Assembly (NCBI GenBank): GCA_040218735.1
Contig: JAVJQW010000011.1
Location: forward strand, 456,426-520,425
Direction of reading: 5' to 3'
DNA: 64,000 nt
From: Deltaproteobacteria bacterium
Lineage (GTDB): Bacteria > Myxococcota > Kuafuiibacteriia > Kuafuiibacteriales > Kuafuiibacteriaceae
This document shows positions 55,454 through 62,337 of this stretch, one piece after another; the stretch's first letter is position 1; each line of letters starts with the position of its first letter. The position numbers were made by a program, and so were the translations under genes. The notes under the pieces were generated by a model. The model was not told the DNA's origin. It did not search any database and was given only the letters and a program-made list of their open reading frames with translations.

Positions 55454-56671
55454 TCAGTTGCAGCTCATCGGCGGCATCGCGTCGATCCACGCCCGCACGA
55501 CGCGCGCGCCGAGGTCGTGTTTCAGGCTTCGGCCGAGCAGCGGCATCATCTCTCCGACGTTCTCGGTCTCGGTCCGGTAGACGAGGATCGAGGCGTCGGC
55601 GTCGCCCGGGACGATGTCGTAGCGCAACCCGCCGGCCCCGCCGCCCGCGGAGCCGGGCTCCTTGCAGACCCCGAGGTTGAAGGCCGACGTGTTGTGCACG
55701 TCGAGGTACAGCCGCGACGTCTGCCCGTTCGTGCCCGCCGGGTTGTGGCAGTGCGCGCAGTTGATGTCCAAGTAGTCGCGCGCCGCGCGCTCGAGGGTCT
55801 CGAAGTCGAGCGCGGTCGTGCTCGTGTCGCGGAGCGTCTCGAGCGGGAAGGCCTGCGGTACTTCGTCGATCGGCGGGAGGCCGTCGAGCATCCCGAGGTC
55901 GGCGAGGTGCACGAGCTGATTGAGCGACGCCCCCTCGTACTCGAACGTACGGTTCAGGTGACGCGCCTTGGGCCCGACGATCGTGAGGTACTTGTCACCC
56001 GTCTCGTCCTCGAGCTCGTGGCATTCGACGCACTGGTTCTTCTGCGGGACGAGGTACTGCGCCGTACGCGGAGCGCCGTTCGGGTCGATCATCTCGATCG
56101 TCTCGACGCGCCCACGCACGAAGTAGTCGGCGTCGCCGTCCTCATTCCAGAGGTAAGGGTACGTCTCCCAGCCCTCCTCCGTTCGGACGAGGACGCGGGT
56201 CTCGATGATGCGGCGATCGACGTTCGGCGATCGCAGGTCGGGCGCGACGGAGAACGACTTGATGACCGCGCTCCCGACCGGCATCTCGAACGCGTCGCGC
56301 TCCGCGTAGACCGCGGCGGTGCCGGTCGGCACGTACAGCGCGCGATCCTTGAGCGCGAAGTCGGAGAACAACGCCGTGCTCAAGTCGTACGGGACGACGC
56401 GCTCGTTGTAGACGAAGCGGCCGTCGACGAGCCGGAAGAAGTTGTAGGACGACAGCAGCGCGTGCGGCGCGTCCAACGGGACGTCGACCGGATCGAGCGG
56501 CTCGAAGCCGGCGTCGGGGGTGCCGGCGTCGCGAAAGCCCGCGTCGGCGAACCCGGCGTCGTGCGACGCGCCGCCGTCGCGCGCGGTTCCTGCGTCGCGC
56601 GGAGGATCCGTCGTCTCCCCCGAGCAAGCGGCGGCCGCGAGCGCGACCGCCGCGATCCAGGCGCGGCTCAC
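55454..56671 (-). CDS. SO2930/HNE_0200-like diheme c-type cytochrome lipoprotein
   Basis: LSSYNFF, VPYDLSTALFSDFALK, IIETRVL; heme motifs CVECH and CAHCH; MMPLLGR. Confidence 0.88.
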   Translation of the reverse strand: MSRAWIAAVALAAAACSGETTDPPRDAGTARDGGASHDAGFADAGFRDAGTPDAGFEPLDPVDVPLDAPHALLSSYNFFRLVDGRFVYNERVVPYDLSTALFSDFALKDRALYVPTGTAAVYAERDAFEMPVGSAVIKSFSVAPDLRSPNVDRRIIETRVLVRTEEGWETYPYLWNEDGDADYFVRGRVETIEMIDPNGAPRTAQYLVPQKNQCVECHELEDETGDKYLTIVGPKARHLNRTFEYEGASLNQLVHLADLGMLDGLPPIDEVPQAFPLETLRDTSTTALDFETLERAARDYLDINCAHCHNPAGTNGQTSRLYLDVHNTSAFNLGVCKEPGSAGGGAGGLRYDIVPGDADASILVYRTETENVGEMMPLLGRSLKHDLGARVVRAWIDAMPPMSCN

Positions 56672-59529
56672 GGGAGCACGACCTCCTCGATCGGTCCGGC
56701 CGTGAACCCGACGCAGTCGAACGGCACGAACGGCGACGCCGGCTGGAAGATGTCCATCTCGGACGGCAGACCGCCCCCGCCGATGATCCCCGCGAGGTTC
56801 GCGATGTCGAGCACCGCGTAGGTCGCGAGGTCCGACGGCCCGACGCAGATGTGGTTGTTGTTCGTGTTGTTCCCCGCGACGTCCGGATCCACGTTCTCGC
56901 CGATGCCGTCGTAGAGGATGTCGTCGACGCCCATCCCTCGGTAGACCACCGACAGCAACGCGCCGATCTCGCGAGCGACGGCGTCATCCGCGTCCGGCGA
57001 CGAGCCGCTCGCGGCGTGCAGGTTGTCGTGCACGTAGAGCTCACTCGTCGCGAAGTTGAGGACGAAGTTCGCGTCGCCCGGGAGGTTGAGACCGGTGATG
57101 TCGCCGACGAGATCCGCGCGCGGGATCGCCCACGCGGTGGTGGACGAGTTCACGACGAACCCGGAGAGGAGCGCCATGTCGGAGGTGTCGTTGTCGTAGT
57201 AGGTGTTCCCGAAGATCTCGACGCGCCGCGACGCCAACACGACGGTGCCGGTACCCCGCGGGATCTGCGAGACGACGGTCATCGACTGCGCGAAGTTGTC
57301 GCGGTTGTTCGACCCGACGTAGTTGTGGCGCACGCGCACGTCGCGACCGACGATCGGGTTGCCGGGGAGGTCGAAGATCAACAGCCCGCCCGTGTTGTCG
57401 GTGAGGTGGTTGTTGTAGACGTCGGCGTACTGCGTGTTCTCGATCTCGAGGCCCGCGACGTTCCCCGCGCCGACGTTGTGCCGGACGACGGTGTTGATGA
57501 CCTGCCCGACGTAGAGGCCGGCGTCGGCGGCGTTGAACGCCTCACACTCCTCGACGAGCACGTTGGTGCTCTTGACCGGGTAGATGCCGTACGCGCCGTT
57601 CGTCGTCGCCGGGCCGTCCGGCCAGGTGACGCGGATGCGGCGGATGACGATGTCGTCGCTGTCCTCGACGCGGAGGCCGTCCTTCTTGGCGTCGGCGATC
57701 GTGAGGCTCTGGATCTCGAACTCGTTGGCGACGACGTCGACGCCGTTGCTCTGGGTGACCTGCCCCGAGAAGTCGAGCGTCGTGACCTGACGCCCCTGTC
57801 CGAGGAGCTTCACCTCGTTCGCGCCGCGGATGGTGACCGCGTTGTCGAACATGAACACACCACGACCGAGGATGAGCGTGGTGCCGTCGTCGAGATCGTT
57901 CACGGCGTCGAGGAACGCGTCCTCCATGCCCGCCTCGAACTCGAAGCAGATGCCGCCGACCGCATCGCAGTCCCACAGCGGGAAGGGCTCGTCGACCTCT
58001 TCGTCGTACAGGCCGAGCTCGACGCCGGCGATCGGACCGGACGTGAAGGTCCGGCAGTCGTACGGCGCGTACGGCGCCGCGGGGCGGAACAGATCGTCGC
58101 GCGTTGGGTTGCCGCCGCCCATGAGCGCCGCGAGCAACGCGGGGAGGTCGAGCGTCGCGACCTGCCCGCCGGACATGCAGACGTGGTTGTTGTTGGTGTT
58201 GTTGCCGGGGACCGCGGCGTCCACCGTCTCCTCGATCCCGTCGTAGAGGATCGGGTCGACGGTCTCGCCACCGTACACCGCCGCGATCAGCGCGCCGATG
58301 GGCCGCGCCAACGCGTCCGAGGCGTCCGGCGCCGTGCCGCCGCCGGTGTGGGTGTTGTCGTGGATGTAGATCTCTTCGCTGCGGAAGTTCGCGATGCCCT
58401 GGTCGTCGAACGGGAGCACGAGACCCGCGAGGCTCCCCTCGCGGTCGCGGTGGCTGATCGCCCACGCCGCGGGATCCTCGGCGAGCGCGAGGCCGGACAG
58501 CACGATGACGTCGCTCGTGTTGTTGTTCTCGTAGGTGTTGTCGTTGATCTCGACGCGACGCGACGCGAGCACGAAGGAGCCGACGCCCGCCGGGATCTGC
58601 GAAACGACGGTGCCGCTCTGCGCGAAGTTCAGGACGTTGTTGTTGGCGATGCGGTTGTCGTGGATGTGCACGTCGCGACCGACGATCGGGTTACCGGGGA
58701 GGTCGAAGACCATGATGCCGGCCGTGTTCATCTCGGCGACGTTGTCGTAGACGTCCGCGTACTGCGTGTTCTCGATCTCGATCCCTGCGACGTTGCCGCG
58801 CGCGACGTTGCGGCGGATGACCGCGTGCATCGACTGCCCGACGTAGATGCCGGCGTCGGCCGCGTTGAACGCTTCCGAGTCTTCGATGAGCACGTTCTCG
58901 CAGCGCACCGGGTAGATGCCGTAGGCGCCGTTGTCACTCGACTCCGCGGTCGCCCAGCTCACGCGAAGCCGTCTGATCTCGACGTCGCGGCTGTCCTCGA
59001 CGCGAAGGCCGTCCTTCTTGGCCTCCTGGATGTCCAGGTCGGAGATCGTGAAGCGGTCGCCGACGACGTCGACGCCGTTGCTCTGTGCCGTCTGCGCCGA
59101 GAAGTCGAGGATGGTCTCGTCCATCCCCTGCCCCGTCAGCGTGATGCCCGAAGCGCCGCGCAGCGTGAGCGCGTTGTCGAGGGTGAAGGTCCCGCTGCCG
59201 AGGACGATCGTCAGGTCGTCCTCCAGCGCGTTGACCGTGTCGAGCAGCAGGCCGAGCTCGGACGCCGGCACCTCGATGCAGGGCGCCGGGAAGGCCGAGC
59301 AGCGGATACGCATGAACTCGGCGGGGTCGATGTTCGATCCGCCGTCGCGGGGGCCGGCGTCTCGCGGACCGCCGTCGCGCGGAGGCTCACCGCCGTCGCG
59401 CGGATCCACGGCGCCGTCGCGGGGCGCACCGCCGTCGCGATCGGTGGAGGTGTCGTCGTCGTCGTCGCCGGAGCAGGCCACGACCGCCAGGAGACAGAGA
59501 GGAGCGAGGCGGAGTCGGAGTGTCAGCAC
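56668..59529 (-). CDS. Parallel beta-helix lipoprotein with two tandem copies of the domain
   Basis: Lipobox VVAC; NGAYGIYPV, AADAGxYVGQ, NVAGxEIEN and FDLPGNPIVGRDV each occur twice; coupled to the cytochrome gene. Confidence 0.9.
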   Translation of the reverse strand: MLTLRLRLAPLCLLAVVACSGDDDDDTSTDRDGGAPRDGAVDPRDGGEPPRDGGPRDAGPRDGGSNIDPAEFMRIRCSAFPAPCIEVPASELGLLLDTVNALEDDLTIVLGSGTFTLDNALTLRGASGITLTGQGMDETILDFSAQTAQSNGVDVVGDRFTISDLDIQEAKKDGLRVEDSRDVEIRRLRVSWATAESSDNGAYGIYPVRCENVLIEDSEAFNAADAGIYVGQSMHAVIRRNVARGNVAGIEIENTQYADVYDNVAEMNTAGIMVFDLPGNPIVGRDVHIHDNRIANNNVLNFAQSGTVVSQIPAGVGSFVLASRRVEINDNTYENNNTSDVIVLSGLALAEDPAAWAISHRDREGSLAGLVLPFDDQGIANFRSEEIYIHDNTHTGGGTAPDASDALARPIGALIAAVYGGETVDPILYDGIEETVDAAVPGNNTNNNHVCMSGGQVATLDLPALLAALMGGGNPTRDDLFRPAAPYAPYDCRTFTSGPIAGVELGLYDEEVDEPFPLWDCDAVGGICFEFEAGMEDAFLDAVNDLDDGTTLILGRGVFMFDNAVTIRGANEVKLLGQGRQVTTLDFSGQVTQSNGVDVVANEFEIQSLTIADAKKDGLRVEDSDDIVIRRIRVTWPDGPATTNGAYGIYPVKSTNVLVEECEAFNAADAGLYVGQVINTVVRHNVGAGNVAGLEIENTQYADVYNNHLTDNTGGLLIFDLPGNPIVGRDVRVRHNYVGSNNRDNFAQSMTVVSQIPRGTGTVVLASRRVEIFGNTYYDNDTSDMALLSGFVVNSSTTAWAIPRADLVGDITGLNLPGDANFVLNFATSELYVHDNLHAASGSSPDADDAVAREIGALLSVVYRGMGVDDILYDGIGENVDPDVAGNNTNNNHICVGPSDLATYAVLDIANLAGIIGGGGLPSEMDIFQPASPFVPFDCVGFTAGPIEEVVLP

Positions 59530-59690
59530 GGACGGGAGTTTGTGCTCATTCGCGCCGCCCTTGGAAGTAGGTGCGTCCCGCCACGTACGACGCGGTGCGG
59601 CGTGGTTCAGGGTGCGTCAGGGACCGGACGACCGACCGATGCGGGCGCGTCGAGACGCAACGCGTCGCGCGGAGCGTCGAAAAGGTACCG

Positions 59691-60584
59691 ATGCCCGTGG
59701 ATGTCGTCGGCGGACGCCGCATCGTTCGCCCCCTGCCGCCGCCCTCGGCCGCCCCGGACGTGGTCCTCGCACCCGACGTCGTCCTCGCGCCCGACGGAAT
59801 GGAGCGGAGCCGAGTCGTCGCGCCCTCGGCGCTATCGCGGGCTACGGTCGTGGAGCGCGCCAAGCGCGCCGCCGTCCCGCAGCGGGTGCAGGTCGGCCCG
59901 ACGTGCGGGCTGTACGCGCTCGGCATGGTGATGGACTTCTGGCACGCGAAGGACCCCGCGAATCCGACGGCGCTGGTGCAGGACCGGGATCGCGCCGGTC
60001 GCGGCAAGCAGTACACGCTGGAGCCCACGACCTCCGAGCGCATCCTCACGGTGGCGAAGGAGCTCGGCTTCACGGCGCTCGGCGAGATGTTCACCGCAAG
60101 GCAACTTGCAAAGACGGCCGAGCACTTCGGCTACGTGGCGACCACCCACGAAGACGCGACGCTCGACGCCCTGTACCGCGTCCTCGACGCGGGCCACCCC
60201 GCGATCGTCGCGTTCGACGTCGACCACAACGGCGACCCCGCCGACCACGGCGGCGACCGCGCGCATTACGCGATCATTCAGGGCTACTTCGACGGGCCCG
60301 ACGGCCGAATGCTCGTCGCGCGGCACGGGTGGGGCGTGCAGGAAGACCACGTGTGGTCCGCGGAGCGCTTCGATACCAGCTGGAAGGCGCTCCACACCAC
60401 GGCCTTCTACGGCGAGCCCGGCGACGACATCATCCCCGACCACCCGGGCGTCGACGAGCCGGACCGCATGACGCTGCCCGACGCCGGCGGCGGACGCGCG
60501 AAGATCTACGACAGCCTCGGCACCAAGATCGTCGAGGTCGTACCGCCGGGAGAGTCACCCGTCGGCGGGACGCGCGCGGCCTGA
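59691..60584 (+). CDS. C39-like cysteine protease resembling eukaryotic ACTMAP
   Basis: QVGPTCGLYAL (Cys), GFTALGEMF, FDVDHNGDP, RAHYAII (His), RHGW. Start uncertain (59571 or 59691). Confidence 0.75.
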   Translation: MPVDVVGGRRIVRPLPPPSAAPDVVLAPDVVLAPDGMERSRVVAPSALSRATVVERAKRAAVPQRVQVGPTCGLYALGMVMDFWHAKDPANPTALVQDRDRAGRGKQYTLEPTTSERILTVAKELGFTALGEMFTARQLAKTAEHFGYVATTHEDATLDALYRVLDAGHPAIVAFDVDHNGDPADHGGDRAHYAIIQGYFDGPDGRMLVARHGWGVQEDHVWSAERFDTSWKALHTTAFYGEPGDDIIPDHPGVDEPDRMTLPDAGGGRAKIYDSLGTKIVEVVPPGESPVGGTRAA

Positions 60585-60585
60585 C

Positions 60586-62337
60586 TCAGCGAATCGTGAC
60601 CGTCGTCGGATCCGACGACGCCGCAACCTTCACGTAGGTCGCGCGGCGCGAAGCGTCGTAGAACCACCCGCCGTTCGACGCCGCCACCGCGGCGACGTCG
60701 GCGACCGAAGACAGCCCCTCGACTTCGGTGGGAGGGGTGTCGGTTCGCACGACGAAGATCGTCGGTGCGAGGGTGCGAGAGATCGACACCGCGCCGCCGT
60801 CCGCGGCGATCTCGGTCTTGCCGTCGTCGCTGTCGCGCAGCACGAACGAGGACGCGGTGGCGCCCGGGTACACGAGCACCGTGAGGTGACCGGCGAAGGC
60901 CTCGGTCCCAATCTCGGTGAGCGCGCGATCGATGGTCATGGGGACGATCGCGCCGGCGCGAACGAACAACGGGATGCGGCTCGGCGACCCGACATCGTAG
61001 GCGGCGAGCGTCGTGCCGCCGTCGTGGGCGTCGTCCTGGGGCGCCCACCAGTCGTACCAGCTCGCGCCGCCGGGCAGCGGGACGTCGCGCACCCCCGACG
61101 CCTCGAAGATCGGCGCCACGAGGAACGCCTCCCCGAGCACGAAGCGCCAGTCGTCCTCCCACGCGTCCGGGCCGTCGCCGATGGGGTGCATCATCGGCCC
61201 GCCCGCGTCGTAGGCGTCCTCGGCGAGGCTGTACAAGAACGGCACGAGCTCGTGGTGGAGCGTCGCCCAATACCGGTAGGTGTCGACGGTCTCGTCGGCG
61301 CGCTCCGGGACACTCCACGGCTCGAGGTTCGCGCGACCGTGCAGTTGCATGAAGGGGGTCATCGCGCCGAGCGCCGTCCACCGCAGGAAGGTGTCGGTGT
61401 CGTAGGGGACGAGATCCGTGAAGCTCTGGTCGTCGCGGTCGAGGTACCCGCCGATGTCCGAGCCGATCACGACGTAGTTGGCCTCTGCGGAGCGGAACAT
61501 GTGGTCGAGGGCGTCGATCATCCCGACGTAGTCACGCCGGTTGTCGCCGACCCAAGTCACCGGGGCGTGTTCGGGGCGCGCGAAGAACCTACCCTCGAAG
61601 TTGTAGGACTTGTCGTAGGGACGAACCATCGTCACGAACTCATCCGTGCCGAGTCGGTTGGCGCCGTACGCCCAGAAGTCACGGTAATACTCTTCGGAAT
61701 ATTCTTGGTGAGAGATGACTCCGGCGTCCGTCTTCACGGTGTCGGTCATGACGTAACTCTCGCCGAAGTCGAGCTTCCACCCGGCGATGCCGGCGTCGAG
61801 CAAGTCGTCTTGCAGCCCGTGCCACCACGCACGGCCCACGTCGTCGGAGAAGTCGATGCCGGAGCCCTTCCCCTTCCACCAGAAGAAGGTCTCGCCGTCG
61901 TTCACGAAGTACTGTTCGCGCTCGGCGATGAGGTACTCGACGGAGGGTGAGTCGTAGGTGTCGCCACCCGCTTCGACGTCAAACGACTCCACGTTGAGCA
62001 TCTGCGTGATCCACAGGACGGTGCGCACGCCCTCGGCGCGGAGGTCGGCGATCATCTTCGGCATCTCGGGGTAACGTTCGGGGTTCGGGTCGAACGTGTT
62101 GTAGTCGGTCTCCCAGGGGGAATCGAGGACGACGACGCCCACCGGGATGTCGCGGGACTTGAAGCCTTCGACGAACGCGTACGTGTCGGGGCCGTCGGAG
62201 ATGTCCTTCGAGATCCACGGCTCGAACGCCCAGCGCGGCGTGTAGATGTCCGGGGTCTTCGTGGGGTCTTCGGGTTCGGGTGTGCCGCCGCCCGAGCAGG
62301 CGGTGATCAACGCGAGGGAGCAGAGGATGCGACGCAC
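60586..62337 (-). CDS. Glycoside hydrolase family 31 lipoprotein
   Basis: Lipobox ITAC; PRWAF, IPVGVVVLDSPW, WKLDFGE (nucleophile), WVGDN, GSDIGGY, FLVAPI, IPLFVRAGAI. Confidence 0.92.
   Translation of the reverse strand: MRRILCSLALITACSGGGTPEPEDPTKTPDIYTPRWAFEPWISKDISDGPDTYAFVEGFKSRDIPVGVVVLDSPWETDYNTFDPNPERYPEMPKMIADLRAEGVRTVLWITQMLNVESFDVEAGGDTYDSPSVEYLIAEREQYFVNDGETFFWWKGKGSGIDFSDDVGRAWWHGLQDDLLDAGIAGWKLDFGESYVMTDTVKTDAGVISHQEYSEEYYRDFWAYGANRLGTDEFVTMVRPYDKSYNFEGRFFARPEHAPVTWVGDNRRDYVGMIDALDHMFRSAEANYVVIGSDIGGYLDRDDQSFTDLVPYDTDTFLRWTALGAMTPFMQLHGRANLEPWSVPERADETVDTYRYWATLHHELVPFLYSLAEDAYDAGGPMMHPIGDGPDAWEDDWRFVLGEAFLVAPIFEASGVRDVPLPGGASWYDWWAPQDDAHDGGTTLAAYDVGSPSRIPLFVRAGAIVPMTIDRALTEIGTEAFAGHLTVLVYPGATASSFVLRDSDDGKTEIAADGGAVSISRTLAPTIFVVRTDTPPTEVEGLSSVADVAAVAASNGGWFYDASRRATYVKVAASSDPTTVTIR

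Follow-up and report, generated by a model that had tools for sequence, protein, structure and literature searches.

An orphaned bacterial relative of the actin maturation protease and the beta-propeller partner predicted to cover its active site

The actin maturation protease ACTMAP (C19orf54) was identified in 2022. It shares the removal of an N-acylated residue with acylaminoacyl peptidase, which, like prolyl oligopeptidase and DPP-IV, holds a beta-propeller face-on over its catalytic site and thereby controls access to it. In the staphopain-staphostatin pairs, a papain-fold protease is co-transcribed with a downstream gene for a cytoplasmic all-beta inhibitor that occupies the cleft and shields the producer. 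Staphopains are secreted zymogens with a signal peptide and a propeptide, and staphostatins are small beta-barrels.

The accessible text of the ACTMAP literature reports that the protease acts with profilin-bound actin (PMC11735805), names Cys132 as the nucleophile of the human enzyme (PMC13367750) and places it in an actin pathway specific to animals (PMC11735805, PMC13557074); in the literature searched, ACTMAP was not linked to prokaryotes by any paper. Among bacterial toxins, the closest described pairs are Cpe1-Cpi1 of E. coli, a papain-fold cysteine protease toxin with its immunity gene downstream (PMC12136450), and StbD-CT-StbI of Citrobacter, a C39/papain-like protease toxin with an immunity protein (bioRxiv 10.64898/2026.05.07.723447). 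As far as the available parts of these two reports go, both toxins are delivered by T6SS or CDI and are classical C39 enzymes with a Cys-His-Asp triad that cut a Gly-Gly site in GyrB and ParE, and their small immunity proteins bind an exosite and leave the active site open instead of capping it. The available part of the survey by Zhang et al. 2012 (PMC3482391) further describes Tox-PLC39, a C39-related papain-like domain that ends T6SS, PVC and T2SS toxins; unlike the family described here, it is listed there for Bacteroidetes, Chloroflexi and Firmicutes and with no immunity family, a comparison made by description only.

The window, i.e. the whole 64-kb stretch of DNA that was analysed, carries on its plus strand a gene for an ACTMAP-like, papain-fold cysteine protease (P0001). 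Its open reading frame at 59691-60584 is uninterrupted and comprises 297 codons plus a stop codon at 60582-60584; an alternative upstream GTG start at 59571 is possible and would add 40 residues containing no hydrophobic stretch by hydropathy scan. The protein matches the Pfam family ACTMAP-like_C (PF21646) at 75.4 bits (cutoff 27, E 6.3e-21), and a search of the genome with PF21646 gave 70.2 bits at the same gene, covering profile positions 2-120 of 121. Peptidase_C39_2, at 23.7 bits, falls marginally below its cutoff of 24, PF03412 is not reported by the Pfam search, and NCBIfam returns nothing meaningful (C39_PA2778_fam, 14.1 bits against a cutoff of 150). Used as a single query, the protein matches named eukaryotic ACTMAPs in phmmer, specifically Capsaspora (E 3.1e-11), Styela and chytrid proteins, and no PDB sequence at E <= 10; a profile search of the PDB adds nothing beyond weak matches to the papain family, with ACTMAP not among them. 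Eukaryotic ACTMAP could thus be compared through predicted structure only, where a chordate 'Actin maturation protease' cluster is the second neighbour (TM 0.60), against 0.48-0.56 for ordinary C39 clusters. Foldseek against the PDB yields 39 matches at E <= 0.001, headed by the C39-like peptidase 3erv, staphopain 1cv8 (second best) and cathepsins, with the ComA peptidase domain 5xe9 also among the best; the entry 9l5u, a 'Papain-like cysteine protease toxin/immunity pair', ranks 48th. The models indicate a papain-like (clan CA) cysteine peptidase fold, and by its sequence the gene encodes a true bacterial relative of ACTMAP, a similarity that Pfam membership already captures.

An earlier note on this DNA, made from the letters alone, had placed the protein closer to ACTMAP than to generic C39 peptidases, and the profile, phmmer and predicted-structure evidence agree on that. 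It had been ready to abandon the idea should the best profile and structure hits be ordinary C39 peptidases with no specific affinity to ACTMAP; the HMM and Foldseek comparison of the two families revealed such an affinity. The five motif strings that it read are all present in the frame and in the order it gave, and the ACTMAP motifs that it quoted recur in the eukaryotic sequences as Q-x-G-P-x-C-G-L/M-V-A-L, [A/P]-Y-D-x-D-x-N and G-x-[K/R]-A-H-W-A columns. Its catalytic codons hold as well: the Cys codon at 59904-59906 and the His codon at 60264-60266 encode residues 72 and 192, its APDVVL duplication corresponds to a real tandem repeat, and the hydropathy scan bears out its statement that the protein has no signal peptide.

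The active site shares its Gln, Cys and His motifs, and their order, with eukaryotic ACTMAP. The motif QVGPTC (59889-59906) runs from Gln67 (59889-59891) to Cys72, and Gln67, Cys72 and His192 are identical in all 80 aligned relatives, which include 10 sequences from the eukaryotic clade, five of them with a eukaryotic name. On the strength of this conservation, Cys72 and His192 are assigned as the catalytic residues, and Gln67, from what is known of the papain family, is the presumed oxyanion-hole residue. His212 (60324-60326), in the motif ARHGWG, is likely the third catalytic residue: 67 of the 80 sequences have His in this alignment column, 6 have Gln and 4 have Asn, and a profile-PDB alignment pairs it with the Asn of the KNSWG motif of cathepsin L. 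In the AlphaFold2 model (pLDDT 93.6, pTM 0.84), helix 72-87 begins at Cys72 and His192 lies within strand 191-202.

Compared with eukaryotic ACTMAP, members of the bacterial clade are extended at both the N- and the C-terminus and are accompanied by a propeller protein as dedicated partner. The N-terminal region is Pro-rich and contains the APDVVL duplication as an 18-bp tandem repeat at 59757-59796 (Tandem Repeats Finder: period 18, 2.2 copies, 90% matches), and one metagenome contig (run X4) has an extra in-frame 18-nt copy after 59756. The C-terminal extension, residues 234-297 (60390-60581; ...FYGEPGDD...KIVEVVPPGE...), is ordered in the model at pLDDT 91-98. It is present in all partner-bearing orthologues, whose matches extend to residues 289-296, and missing from a more distant, partner-less clade, whose matches stop at 243-248; within it, residues 241-243 of the paralogue from the same genome fall in the predicted partner interface. 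The scan detected no signal-peptide-like or membrane segment in the protease (maximum 19-residue Kyte-Doolittle mean 1.03, without a trained predictor), and Pfam recognised no trafficking domain.

Family membership does not amount to orthology. In a quick, unrooted tree of 188 columns, the eukaryotic ACTMAP clade takes up 16 of 119 rows (SH-aLRT 98), and the window protein is placed outside it, in another group of 42 rows; it is a member of the ACTMAP family but, on this tree, no ACTMAP orthologue, with the eukaryotic clade not its sister. The genome (96.5% complete) also offers no actin: its PF00022 matches are two MreB paralogues only (454 and 453 bits to MreB_Mbl), which sets it apart from the setting of the eukaryotic enzyme, described in the accessible text as working with profilin-bound actin (PMC11735805). 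The search for profilin gave no match, but this profile was silent in 14 of 14 control genomes too. Of the ideas in the earlier note, the affinity to ACTMAP is borne out, while the link to actin is weakened by a genome with nothing beyond MreB and by eukaryotic ACTMAPs that form a separate clade; the phylogeny that it had suggested does not group the window protein with them.

What distinguishes the bacterial clade most is a second gene. Directly 3' of the protease and on the same strand, it is found in 16 of 31 related loci, namely beside the paralogue and all 15 closer orthologues (L007-L021). It also accompanies the protease in 12 of the 13 named loci from Myxococcota MAGs, whose genomes partly overlap those of the 31-locus set. 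In 15 of the 16 loci its start, with start codons chosen by the analyst, lies 4 to 20 nt ahead of the protease stop; outside close kin, it is the sole neighbour to be conserved. The product (222-345 aa) matches no Pfam family and, by the same hydropathy scan, carries no export signals, as is the case for the protease. Outside the closest kin, partners from different cassettes are merely 19-31% identical, against about 45-56% for the proteases of those cassettes, so that the partner, as judged from these identities, evolves much faster than the protease. Its models have a beta-propeller fold, with DPPIV_N, tricorn and S9-peptidase propellers among the predicted-structure neighbours (TM 0.71-0.74) and DPP-IV 5yp4, prolyl endopeptidase 2bkl and tricorn 1k32 as PDB neighbours. 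Such structural matches are generic for the fold. A fused propeller-protease, P0130 (798 aa), was considered and dropped, its N-terminal PQQ_2/BamB match of 23.6 bits lying below the cutoff of 27.6; the partner profile recognises neither P0130 nor P0137 nor any stored protein outside the partner family. The protease homologue itself is patchily distributed: across the phylum, 33 of 401 genomes bear one, as do 3 of the 19 from the family to which the window genome belongs. PADLOC matches neither of the two proteases of this genome, nor the partner.

The paralogue and its cognate partner from the same genome were used for a complex prediction. It scored 0.85 (runs 0.75, 0.86 and 0.85), against 0.00 for the best of three controls; 58 of 80 solved complexes attain the score mark, as do 2 of 110 mismatched pairs, counts that are approximate because of the analyst's own alignments. 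The runs share at least 57% of contacts, with a partner pLDDT of at least 86. The predicted interface comprises paralogue residues 44-45, which adjoin Cys47, the loop 151-157 and the catalytic His167, and one face of the propeller is thereby predicted to cover the catalytic cleft. The partner N-terminus is conserved as M-x-H-R-L-x4-L-P and might possibly be a substrate of the protease; the named predicted interface contains no partner residues from 1-54, with the unnamed residues uncertain. Between the two proteases of this genome, 15 of 39 interface positions are identical, as opposed to 101 of 193 core positions, which suggests that the protease interface evolves faster than the core. The interface identity of 15/39 lends no support to the idea that the paralogue's partner cross-protects the orphan.

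The same pair appears elsewhere on type VI spikes. Two relatives that share 42-43% identity with the window protein, P0148 and P0151, are VgrG proteins that end in an ACTMAP-like domain, as is L062, and in both VgrG-type loci that were fetched the next gene downstream, at a GTGA stop/start overlap, encodes a PD40 propeller. Aligned with the partner family by hhalign, this propeller reaches a probability of 90.7% (E 1.2e-6, 215 columns), whereas four PD40 proteins from that genome with no relation to it reach 0.4-39%; homology of the VgrG-locus propeller to the partner family is therefore probable, read against a generic PD40 control that itself reached 39%. A VgrG-borne warhead followed by a propeller gene has the arrangement of a type VI effector with its immunity gene, where the propeller would confer immunity, and it equals the layout of Cpe1-Cpi1 and StbD-CT-StbI as given in the accessible text. 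The window copy itself lacks these ties. Its genome contains no TssC/VipB, no VgrG-level match and a single weak Phage_GPD match (31.6 bits) on another contig, and the window gene shows none of the usual marks of a T6SS effector (a VgrG/PAAR/Hcp link, a T6SS genome, a downstream immunity gene). VgrG-level matches occur in just two of the 33 homologue-bearing genomes (G196 and G212), so that the stand-alone cassette is probably not T6SS cargo. No VgrG-ACTMAP-like fusion was found in the 401 genomes of the phylum, where each match was confined either to the VgrG part or to the protease domain, and a word index scored no longer fused form among 586 candidates, which is weak evidence.

In the window lineage, the partner gene has been precisely deleted. 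The protease stop (60582-60584) and the convergent stop of a GH31 gene on the minus strand (60586-60588) are separated by 1 bp, a junction (60582-60588) at which locus L007, from the same genus, has some 745 bp that include a 222-aa partner gene. The partner profile has no match in any frame of the window, and metagenome contigs from two other studies span the junction (X2 record 1 and X4 record 23). The orphan protease is nevertheless intact and subject to purifying selection: of the listed variants that fall in its frame, 18 are synonymous and 10 non-synonymous (pN/pS ~0.19), and the strain variant T>C at 60266, in the His192 codon, is synonymous.

The reading that we prefer, and to which we give about an even chance, is that the window gene encodes a cytoplasmic conflict-system protease from an ACTMAP-like bacterial clade that has been orphaned from its inhibitor. 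Specifically, the protease would act in the cytoplasm with Gln67, Cys72, His192 and probably His212 at its active site, and in most of the clade it would be co-transcribed and translationally coupled with the fast-evolving propeller. With one face on the cleft, the propeller would serve as a tight, immunity-type inhibitor, a function that the complex model suggests. Elsewhere the same pair appears as a C-terminal VgrG warhead with the gene just downstream, and this layout makes a conflict-system protease the most likely role. Freed of its inhibitor, the protease would damage a protein target, possibly by cleavage at or near a protein N-terminus in analogy with ACTMAP; its toxicity, delivery route and substrate belong to the conjectural part of this model. 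In the window lineage, clean deletion of the presumed inhibitor gene has left the orphan.

Several observations sit uneasily with this reading. Loss of an immunity gene while an active-type, constrained toxin is kept is unexpected and argues for a producer that lacks the target or for a partner that is no essential antidote. At 222-345 aa, the partner also exceeds most immunity proteins in size. The absence of a signal peptide or trafficking domain, a genome without TssC/VipB and an empty PADLOC result likewise speak against it, as do the exosite binding described for both characterised C39-type toxin-immunity pairs, the scarcity of VgrG-level matches among homologue-bearing genomes and a propeller-to-propeller homology that is no more than probable.

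Did the pair instead arise for regulated processing within the cell? A housekeeping or regulated cytoplasmic protease could trim the N-terminus of one bacterial protein or a few, as ACTMAP does with actin, with the propeller as a gating or substrate-recruiting subunit and no antidote. This is unlikely, although it would suit true ACTMAP-family membership, two proteins without export signals, a propeller face predicted to be centred on the catalytic residues, cassette-bearing genomes that mostly lack VgrG, and a constrained orphan, whose persistence without the partner poses less of a problem if the enzyme is not toxic. The DPPIV_N, tricorn and S9-peptidase propellers and the entries 5yp4, 2bkl and 1k32 near the partner favour it as well, but these matches are fold-generic. 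In prolyl oligopeptidase, DPP-IV and acylaminoacyl peptidase, all serine hydrolases, propeller and enzyme form a single chain; here a papain fold is paired with a separate, fast-evolving propeller. A patchy 33/401 distribution in variable context is unusual for housekeeping, the partner changes far more quickly than the protease and interface positions more quickly than core positions, and the same pair is found on VgrG spikes. The maturation enzyme that the earlier note had envisaged loses ground, since the capping partner and the VgrG fusions with that same partner point elsewhere.

An abortive-infection type of intracellular defence, in which the propeller restrains the protease and frees it on sensing phage or another insult so that host or invader proteins are cut, is clearly improbable. 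It would fit a patchy, cytoplasmic two-gene cassette in variable context with a fast-evolving partner, the predicted capping of the active site, and independence from T6SS in these genomes. PADLOC, however, assigns no defence family to protease, paralogue or partner, there are no known defence genes among the conserved neighbours, and loss of the sensor or inhibitor with the effector kept would be expected to be harmful.

A weapon against eukaryotes, for instance amoebal grazers, that would clip the N-terminus of actin or another eukaryotic protein is highly improbable. VgrG spikes can carry anti-eukaryotic domains, and such a role would be in keeping with ACTMAP homology, with relatives that bear eukaryote-directed-looking modules (FYVE in P0226, LRR plus AAA in P0236) and with an orphan tolerated without its inhibitor, as expected if bacteria lack the target. 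However, most of the clade and the VgrG forms come with a tightly coupled partner predicted to cap the active site, which implies a risk to the producer, and hence a bacterial target; the protease has no export signal, and its clade stands apart from that of eukaryotic ACTMAPs. An actin-directed effector, one form of the anti-eukaryotic role suggested by the earlier note, thereby gives way to a conflict module with a probably bacterial target. Finally, an ordinary C39-type leader peptidase, which would strip a bacteriocin or a signalling peptide of its double-glycine leader, is barely credible, since the public annotation of homologues as 'C39 family peptidase' and PDB matches such as 3erv and 5xe9 are set against a Peptidase_C39_2 score below cutoff beside 75.4 bits for ACTMAP-like_C, a stand-alone 297-aa protein with no ABC transporter fusion, flanks that encode a beta-helix/NosD-like protein and the GH31 glycosidase, and a propeller as the sole conserved neighbour.

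The conflict-system protease that we favour would differ from each of its closest counterparts. Compared with Cpe1 and StbD-CT, it is ACTMAP-like, has His, Gln or Asn as third residue and has a 222-345-aa propeller predicted over the active site, and its window copy lacks both a delivery domain and the partner. With staphopain and staphostatin it shares a protease followed by a downstream all-beta protein, the presumptive inhibitor, and the structural match to 1cv8; staphostatins are nevertheless no propellers and have no sequence relation to the partner. New here are the conserved propeller partner gene and its predicted capping of the cleft, with a function that is likewise predicted.

If the proposed reading is true, it has three consequences. 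The ACTMAP fold would be an old bacterial weapon with a dedicated beta-propeller inhibitor, and the pair would represent a new type of protease toxin and immunity in which the active site is capped, in contrast to Cpi1 and StbI with their exosite binding. The bacterial proteins and their natural inhibitor would furthermore provide tractable models for ACTMAP, an enzyme without a solved structure. They would also yield a concrete hypothesis on the eukaryotic source of ACTMAP—did eukaryotic ACTMAPs derive from a bacterial conflict protease, one of a set of N-terminal (acyl-)aminopeptidase toxins that would disable a conserved bacterial protein at its N-terminus, are kept in check by an immunity propeller plugging the active site, and are delivered on VgrG in some phyla and by another route in Myxococcota, with the orphan's producer past needing the antidote? 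We consider this extended scenario decidedly unlikely as a whole, and it would make the window protein a bacterial witness to the origin of the eukaryotic enzyme.

The window encodes, at 59691-60584 on the plus strand, a papain-fold protease whose affinity to the eukaryotic actin maturation protease ACTMAP is specific and whose homology to it is real, a relationship already implicit in Pfam. Specifically, the ACTMAP-like_C profile (PF21646) matches at E 6.3e-21 and 75.4 bits (cutoff 27), and Peptidase_C39_2 reaches 23.7 bits, just below its cutoff of 24; NCBIfam returned nothing. All 120 near-length homologues retrieved from 5.8 billion clusters carry PF21646; the few with a name are labelled 'C39 family peptidase' or 'hypothetical', and they come from Myxococcota or 'Deltaproteobacteria' MAGs. 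Exhaustive phmmer against 1.84 billion representatives gave 315 matches at E <= 0.001, among them an 'Actin maturation protease' of Capsaspora (E 3.1e-11, 41% identity over the matched part), further proteins so named from Caulochytrium and, as 'actin maturation protease-like', from the tunicate Styela, chytrid proteins and one Diplonema protein. The PDB copy searched with the protein and the family profile yielded no ACTMAP entry, and the best solved structures were the C39-like peptidase 3erv, staphopain 1cv8 and cathepsins. Among predicted structures, a chordate 'Actin maturation protease' cluster ranked second after the protein's own (TM 0.60, 207 residues aligned), with ordinary C39 clusters lower (TM 0.48-0.56). 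Because profile, phmmer and predicted-structure matches favour ACTMAP, the earlier note's proposal that the protein lies closer to it than to generic C39 peptidases holds.

The other sequence features described in that note are likewise borne out. All the motifs it quoted occur, in the order given, in an open frame that runs for 297 codons to its stop, and the proposed catalytic codons at 59904-59906 and 60264-60266 (both +) are those of Cys72 and His192. Gln67, Cys72 and His192 are invariant in an 80-sequence alignment; His212 (ARHGWG) aligns to cathepsin L's catalytic Asn, and 77 of the 80 sequences have His, Gln or Asn at this position. The AlphaFold2 model is confident (pLDDT 93.6, pTM 0.84). 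In line with the note's statement that there is no signal peptide, a hydropathy scan, which is not a trained predictor, found no signal-like or membrane segment (maximum 19-residue mean 1.03), and an alternative GTG start at 59571 would add 40 residues, again without a hydrophobic segment. The APDVVL duplication corresponds to an 18-bp tandem repeat of 2.2 copies (59757-59796). This repeat (59756-59796) varies in copy number between strains, with an extra in-frame unit in one contig of the metagenome run X4. Divergent from the protease gene lies the gene of a 953-aa protein (56668-59529, -) that is built of two Beta_helix/NosD-like halves and begins with a lipoprotein-like N-terminus; the divergent arrangement is kept in the same-genus locus L007. 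Beyond it, a 405-aa frame (55454-56671, -) has no Pfam match at E <= 1e-5 and shows, by eye, two CxxCH haem-binding-type motifs (QCVECH, NCAHCH).

The window protein is not an ACTMAP orthologue. In a quick, unrooted maximum-likelihood tree of 119 catalytic domains (188 columns, LG+G4), a single 16-row clade (SH-aLRT 98) takes in all six eukaryotic-named rows, and the window protein lies outside it, in a 15-row clade (support 83) within a 42-row group (support 90) that also contains VgrG-fused and GNAT-fused forms. In the genome (11.6 Mb, 70 contigs, 96.5% complete), where the earlier note proposed to look for actin and profilin homologues, only two MreB paralogues match the actin model, and a profilin search, run with no positive control, gave no match. 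Our literature search found no paper joining ACTMAP with prokaryotes or 'actin maturation protease' with bacterial homologs; in the accessible part of a classification of papain-like proteases from 2023, C19orf54 is entered as 'of unknown function'.

Several relatives are of interest in their own right. The ACTMAP clade includes proteins of the euglenozoan Diplonema (P0246/P0277), of chytrid-type fungi (P0194, P0228, P0203) and of Capsaspora (P0197); the available text of reviews describes the actin maturation pathway as animal-restricted (PMC11735805, PMC13557074). Four phmmer representatives (P0130, P0137, P0139, P0141) form a clade with SH-aLRT 100 and share with the window protein its C-terminal extension (...FYGDP...LIEVVP...). 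Their clusters include a protein of the stramenopile alga Pedinella. The clade looks like a second eukaryotic lineage, nearer the myxobacterial type (match to the window protein at E 3.6e-36) than animal ACTMAP; this could reflect bacteria-alga transfer or transcriptome contamination. The metagenomic P0138 (990 aa) combines two ACTMAP-like domains with a GNAT acetyltransferase, which by analogy recalls the acetylation-cleavage-acetylation logic of actin maturation. In one 37-row clade, where one member's cluster includes a Gammaproteobacteria MAG protein, the domain is fused to a FYVE motif zinc finger (P0226, P0209) or to LRR and AAA domains (P0236, 2491 aa); these fusions could be host-directed effectors.

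Functional clues come from gene neighbourhoods. Thirty-one loci, the paralogue's and 30 drawn from 401 genomes of the phylum, were screened by iterated profile search. A single neighbour is conserved: in 16 loci, those of the paralogue and of every one of the 15 closer orthologues (L007-L021), it lies immediately downstream and on the protease's strand. Its start, at author-chosen codons, overlaps the protease gene end by 4-20 nt in 15 of these 16. In a set of named Myxococcota MAG loci taken with 6-kb flanks, whose genomes partly overlap the first set, 12 of 13 have the partner, and no other neighbour is conserved beyond close kin. A distant partner-less clade (L025-L035) also lacks the protease C-terminal extension. 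The partner (222-345 aa) matches no Pfam family, has only four near homologues in a large database and is modelled as an all-beta propeller (pLDDT 81, pTM 0.81), with TolB, LRP6, WD40, DPP-IV, prolyl endopeptidase and tricorn propellers as structural neighbours. Outside closest kin, partners of different cassettes are only 19-31% identical, and their proteases about 45-56%. The window's genome has the partner once, in the intact cassette L002 on contig 56: the second ACTMAP-like gene (from 1141 or 1234 to 2043, +), 48-50% identical to the window's, is followed at an ATGA stop/start overlap by the 303-aa propeller P0272 (2040-2951, +). The protease of L002 is identical to P0105, recorded on five contigs, the longest of 11.5 Mb.

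Complex prediction for this cognate pair, with an alignment supplied for each protein, supports partner binding, although it gauges model confidence rather than binding in a cell. The pair scored 0.85 (runs 0.75, 0.86, 0.85), against 0.00 for the best of three controls; in calibration, 58 of the 80 solved complexes reached the score mark, as did 2 of the 110 mismatched pairs, counts that are only rough since our own alignments were used. Runs share at least 57% of contacts, with partner pLDDT at least 86. Periodic propeller loops (129-137, 154-158, 181-184, 200-205, 225-228, 248-253) are predicted to meet protease residues 44-45 (beside Cys47), 151-157, the catalytic His167, 189-198 and part of the C-terminal extension. 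Orphan and paralogue are identical at 15 of 39 predicted interface positions, versus 101 of 193 in the core, and there are no grounds for supposing that the paralogue's partner covers the orphan.

The partner has left the window locus. In L007, whose protease is 80% identical, about 745 bp with a 222-aa partner gene separate the protease stop from the convergent GH31 stop; in the window just 1 bp lies between the two stops, and the partner profile matches in no frame of the 64 kb. A 3,792-nt sponge-metagenome contig (run X2) covers 59300-60900 with 15 differences and 3 gaps, and an aquaculture-metagenome contig (X4) likewise bridges the junction, which is therefore not an assembly artefact. 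The orphan gene nevertheless appears maintained, since the variants listed within the frame from four runs comprise 18 synonymous and 10 non-synonymous changes (pN/pS about 0.19; nine further variants lie outside the listing, and some contigs may stem from related organisms). Among those listed, the one at the His192 codon is silent and none creates a stop or shifts the frame.

VgrG-fused relatives offer a second setting. P0148 shares 43% identity with the window protein and P0151 42%; each is a full VgrG protein (Phage_GPD, Phage_base_V, Gp5_trimer_C) that ends in an ACTMAP-like domain. A search of the 401 genomes sampled from the phylum found no such fusion. Two VgrG-type loci were taken from metagenome contigs. 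L062 has a complete 838-aa fusion and, at a GTGA overlap, the first 52 codons of the next gene; L063 has the end of a similar protease domain and, at the same overlap, that gene in complete form, coding for a 334-aa PD40 propeller that lacks a hydrophobic N-terminus. By profile comparison, this propeller is probably related to the Myxococcota partner family (hhalign probability 90.7%, E 1.2e-6, 215 columns; 0.4%, 0.8%, 8.1% and 39.2% for four unrelated PD40 proteins of the window's genome), short of proof. Effector-immunity pairs classically have this layout, in which a tightly coupled gene comes straight after a VgrG warhead. Among papain-like toxins, the characterised toxin-immunity examples are Cpe1-Cpi1 and StbD-StbI; by the accessible text of their reports, the toxins cleave GyrB and ParE, and Cpi1 and StbI bind exosites (PMC12136450; bioRxiv 10.64898/2026.05.07.723447). 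The partner here, unlike them, is predicted to cap the active site. The available part of Zhang et al. 2012 lists a 'Tox-PLC39' domain without an immunity family (PMC3482391).

The functional reading favoured here, a protease toxin of the papain-like type paired with an immunity-type inhibitor, has roughly even chances. Against a simple toxin, protease and partner both lack an export signal, the genome shows no TssC/VipB and just one weak baseplate-hub match, a PADLOC search gave nothing, and it is odd for a toxin to be kept once its antidote is gone. By our reading, moreover, a VgrG-level match occurs in only 2 of 33 homologue-bearing genomes (G196, G212), versus roughly 100 of 401 overall. 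That 31 of the 33 are without one is a pattern only, as kin are not independent. Because of these points three alternatives are kept alive: a regulated processing protease gated by its propeller, a defence module, and a protease whose target is absent from the producer. What is new for this family is a conserved propeller partner, predicted to cap the active site, its apparent recurrence behind VgrG-fused relatives and its clean loss in the window's lineage.
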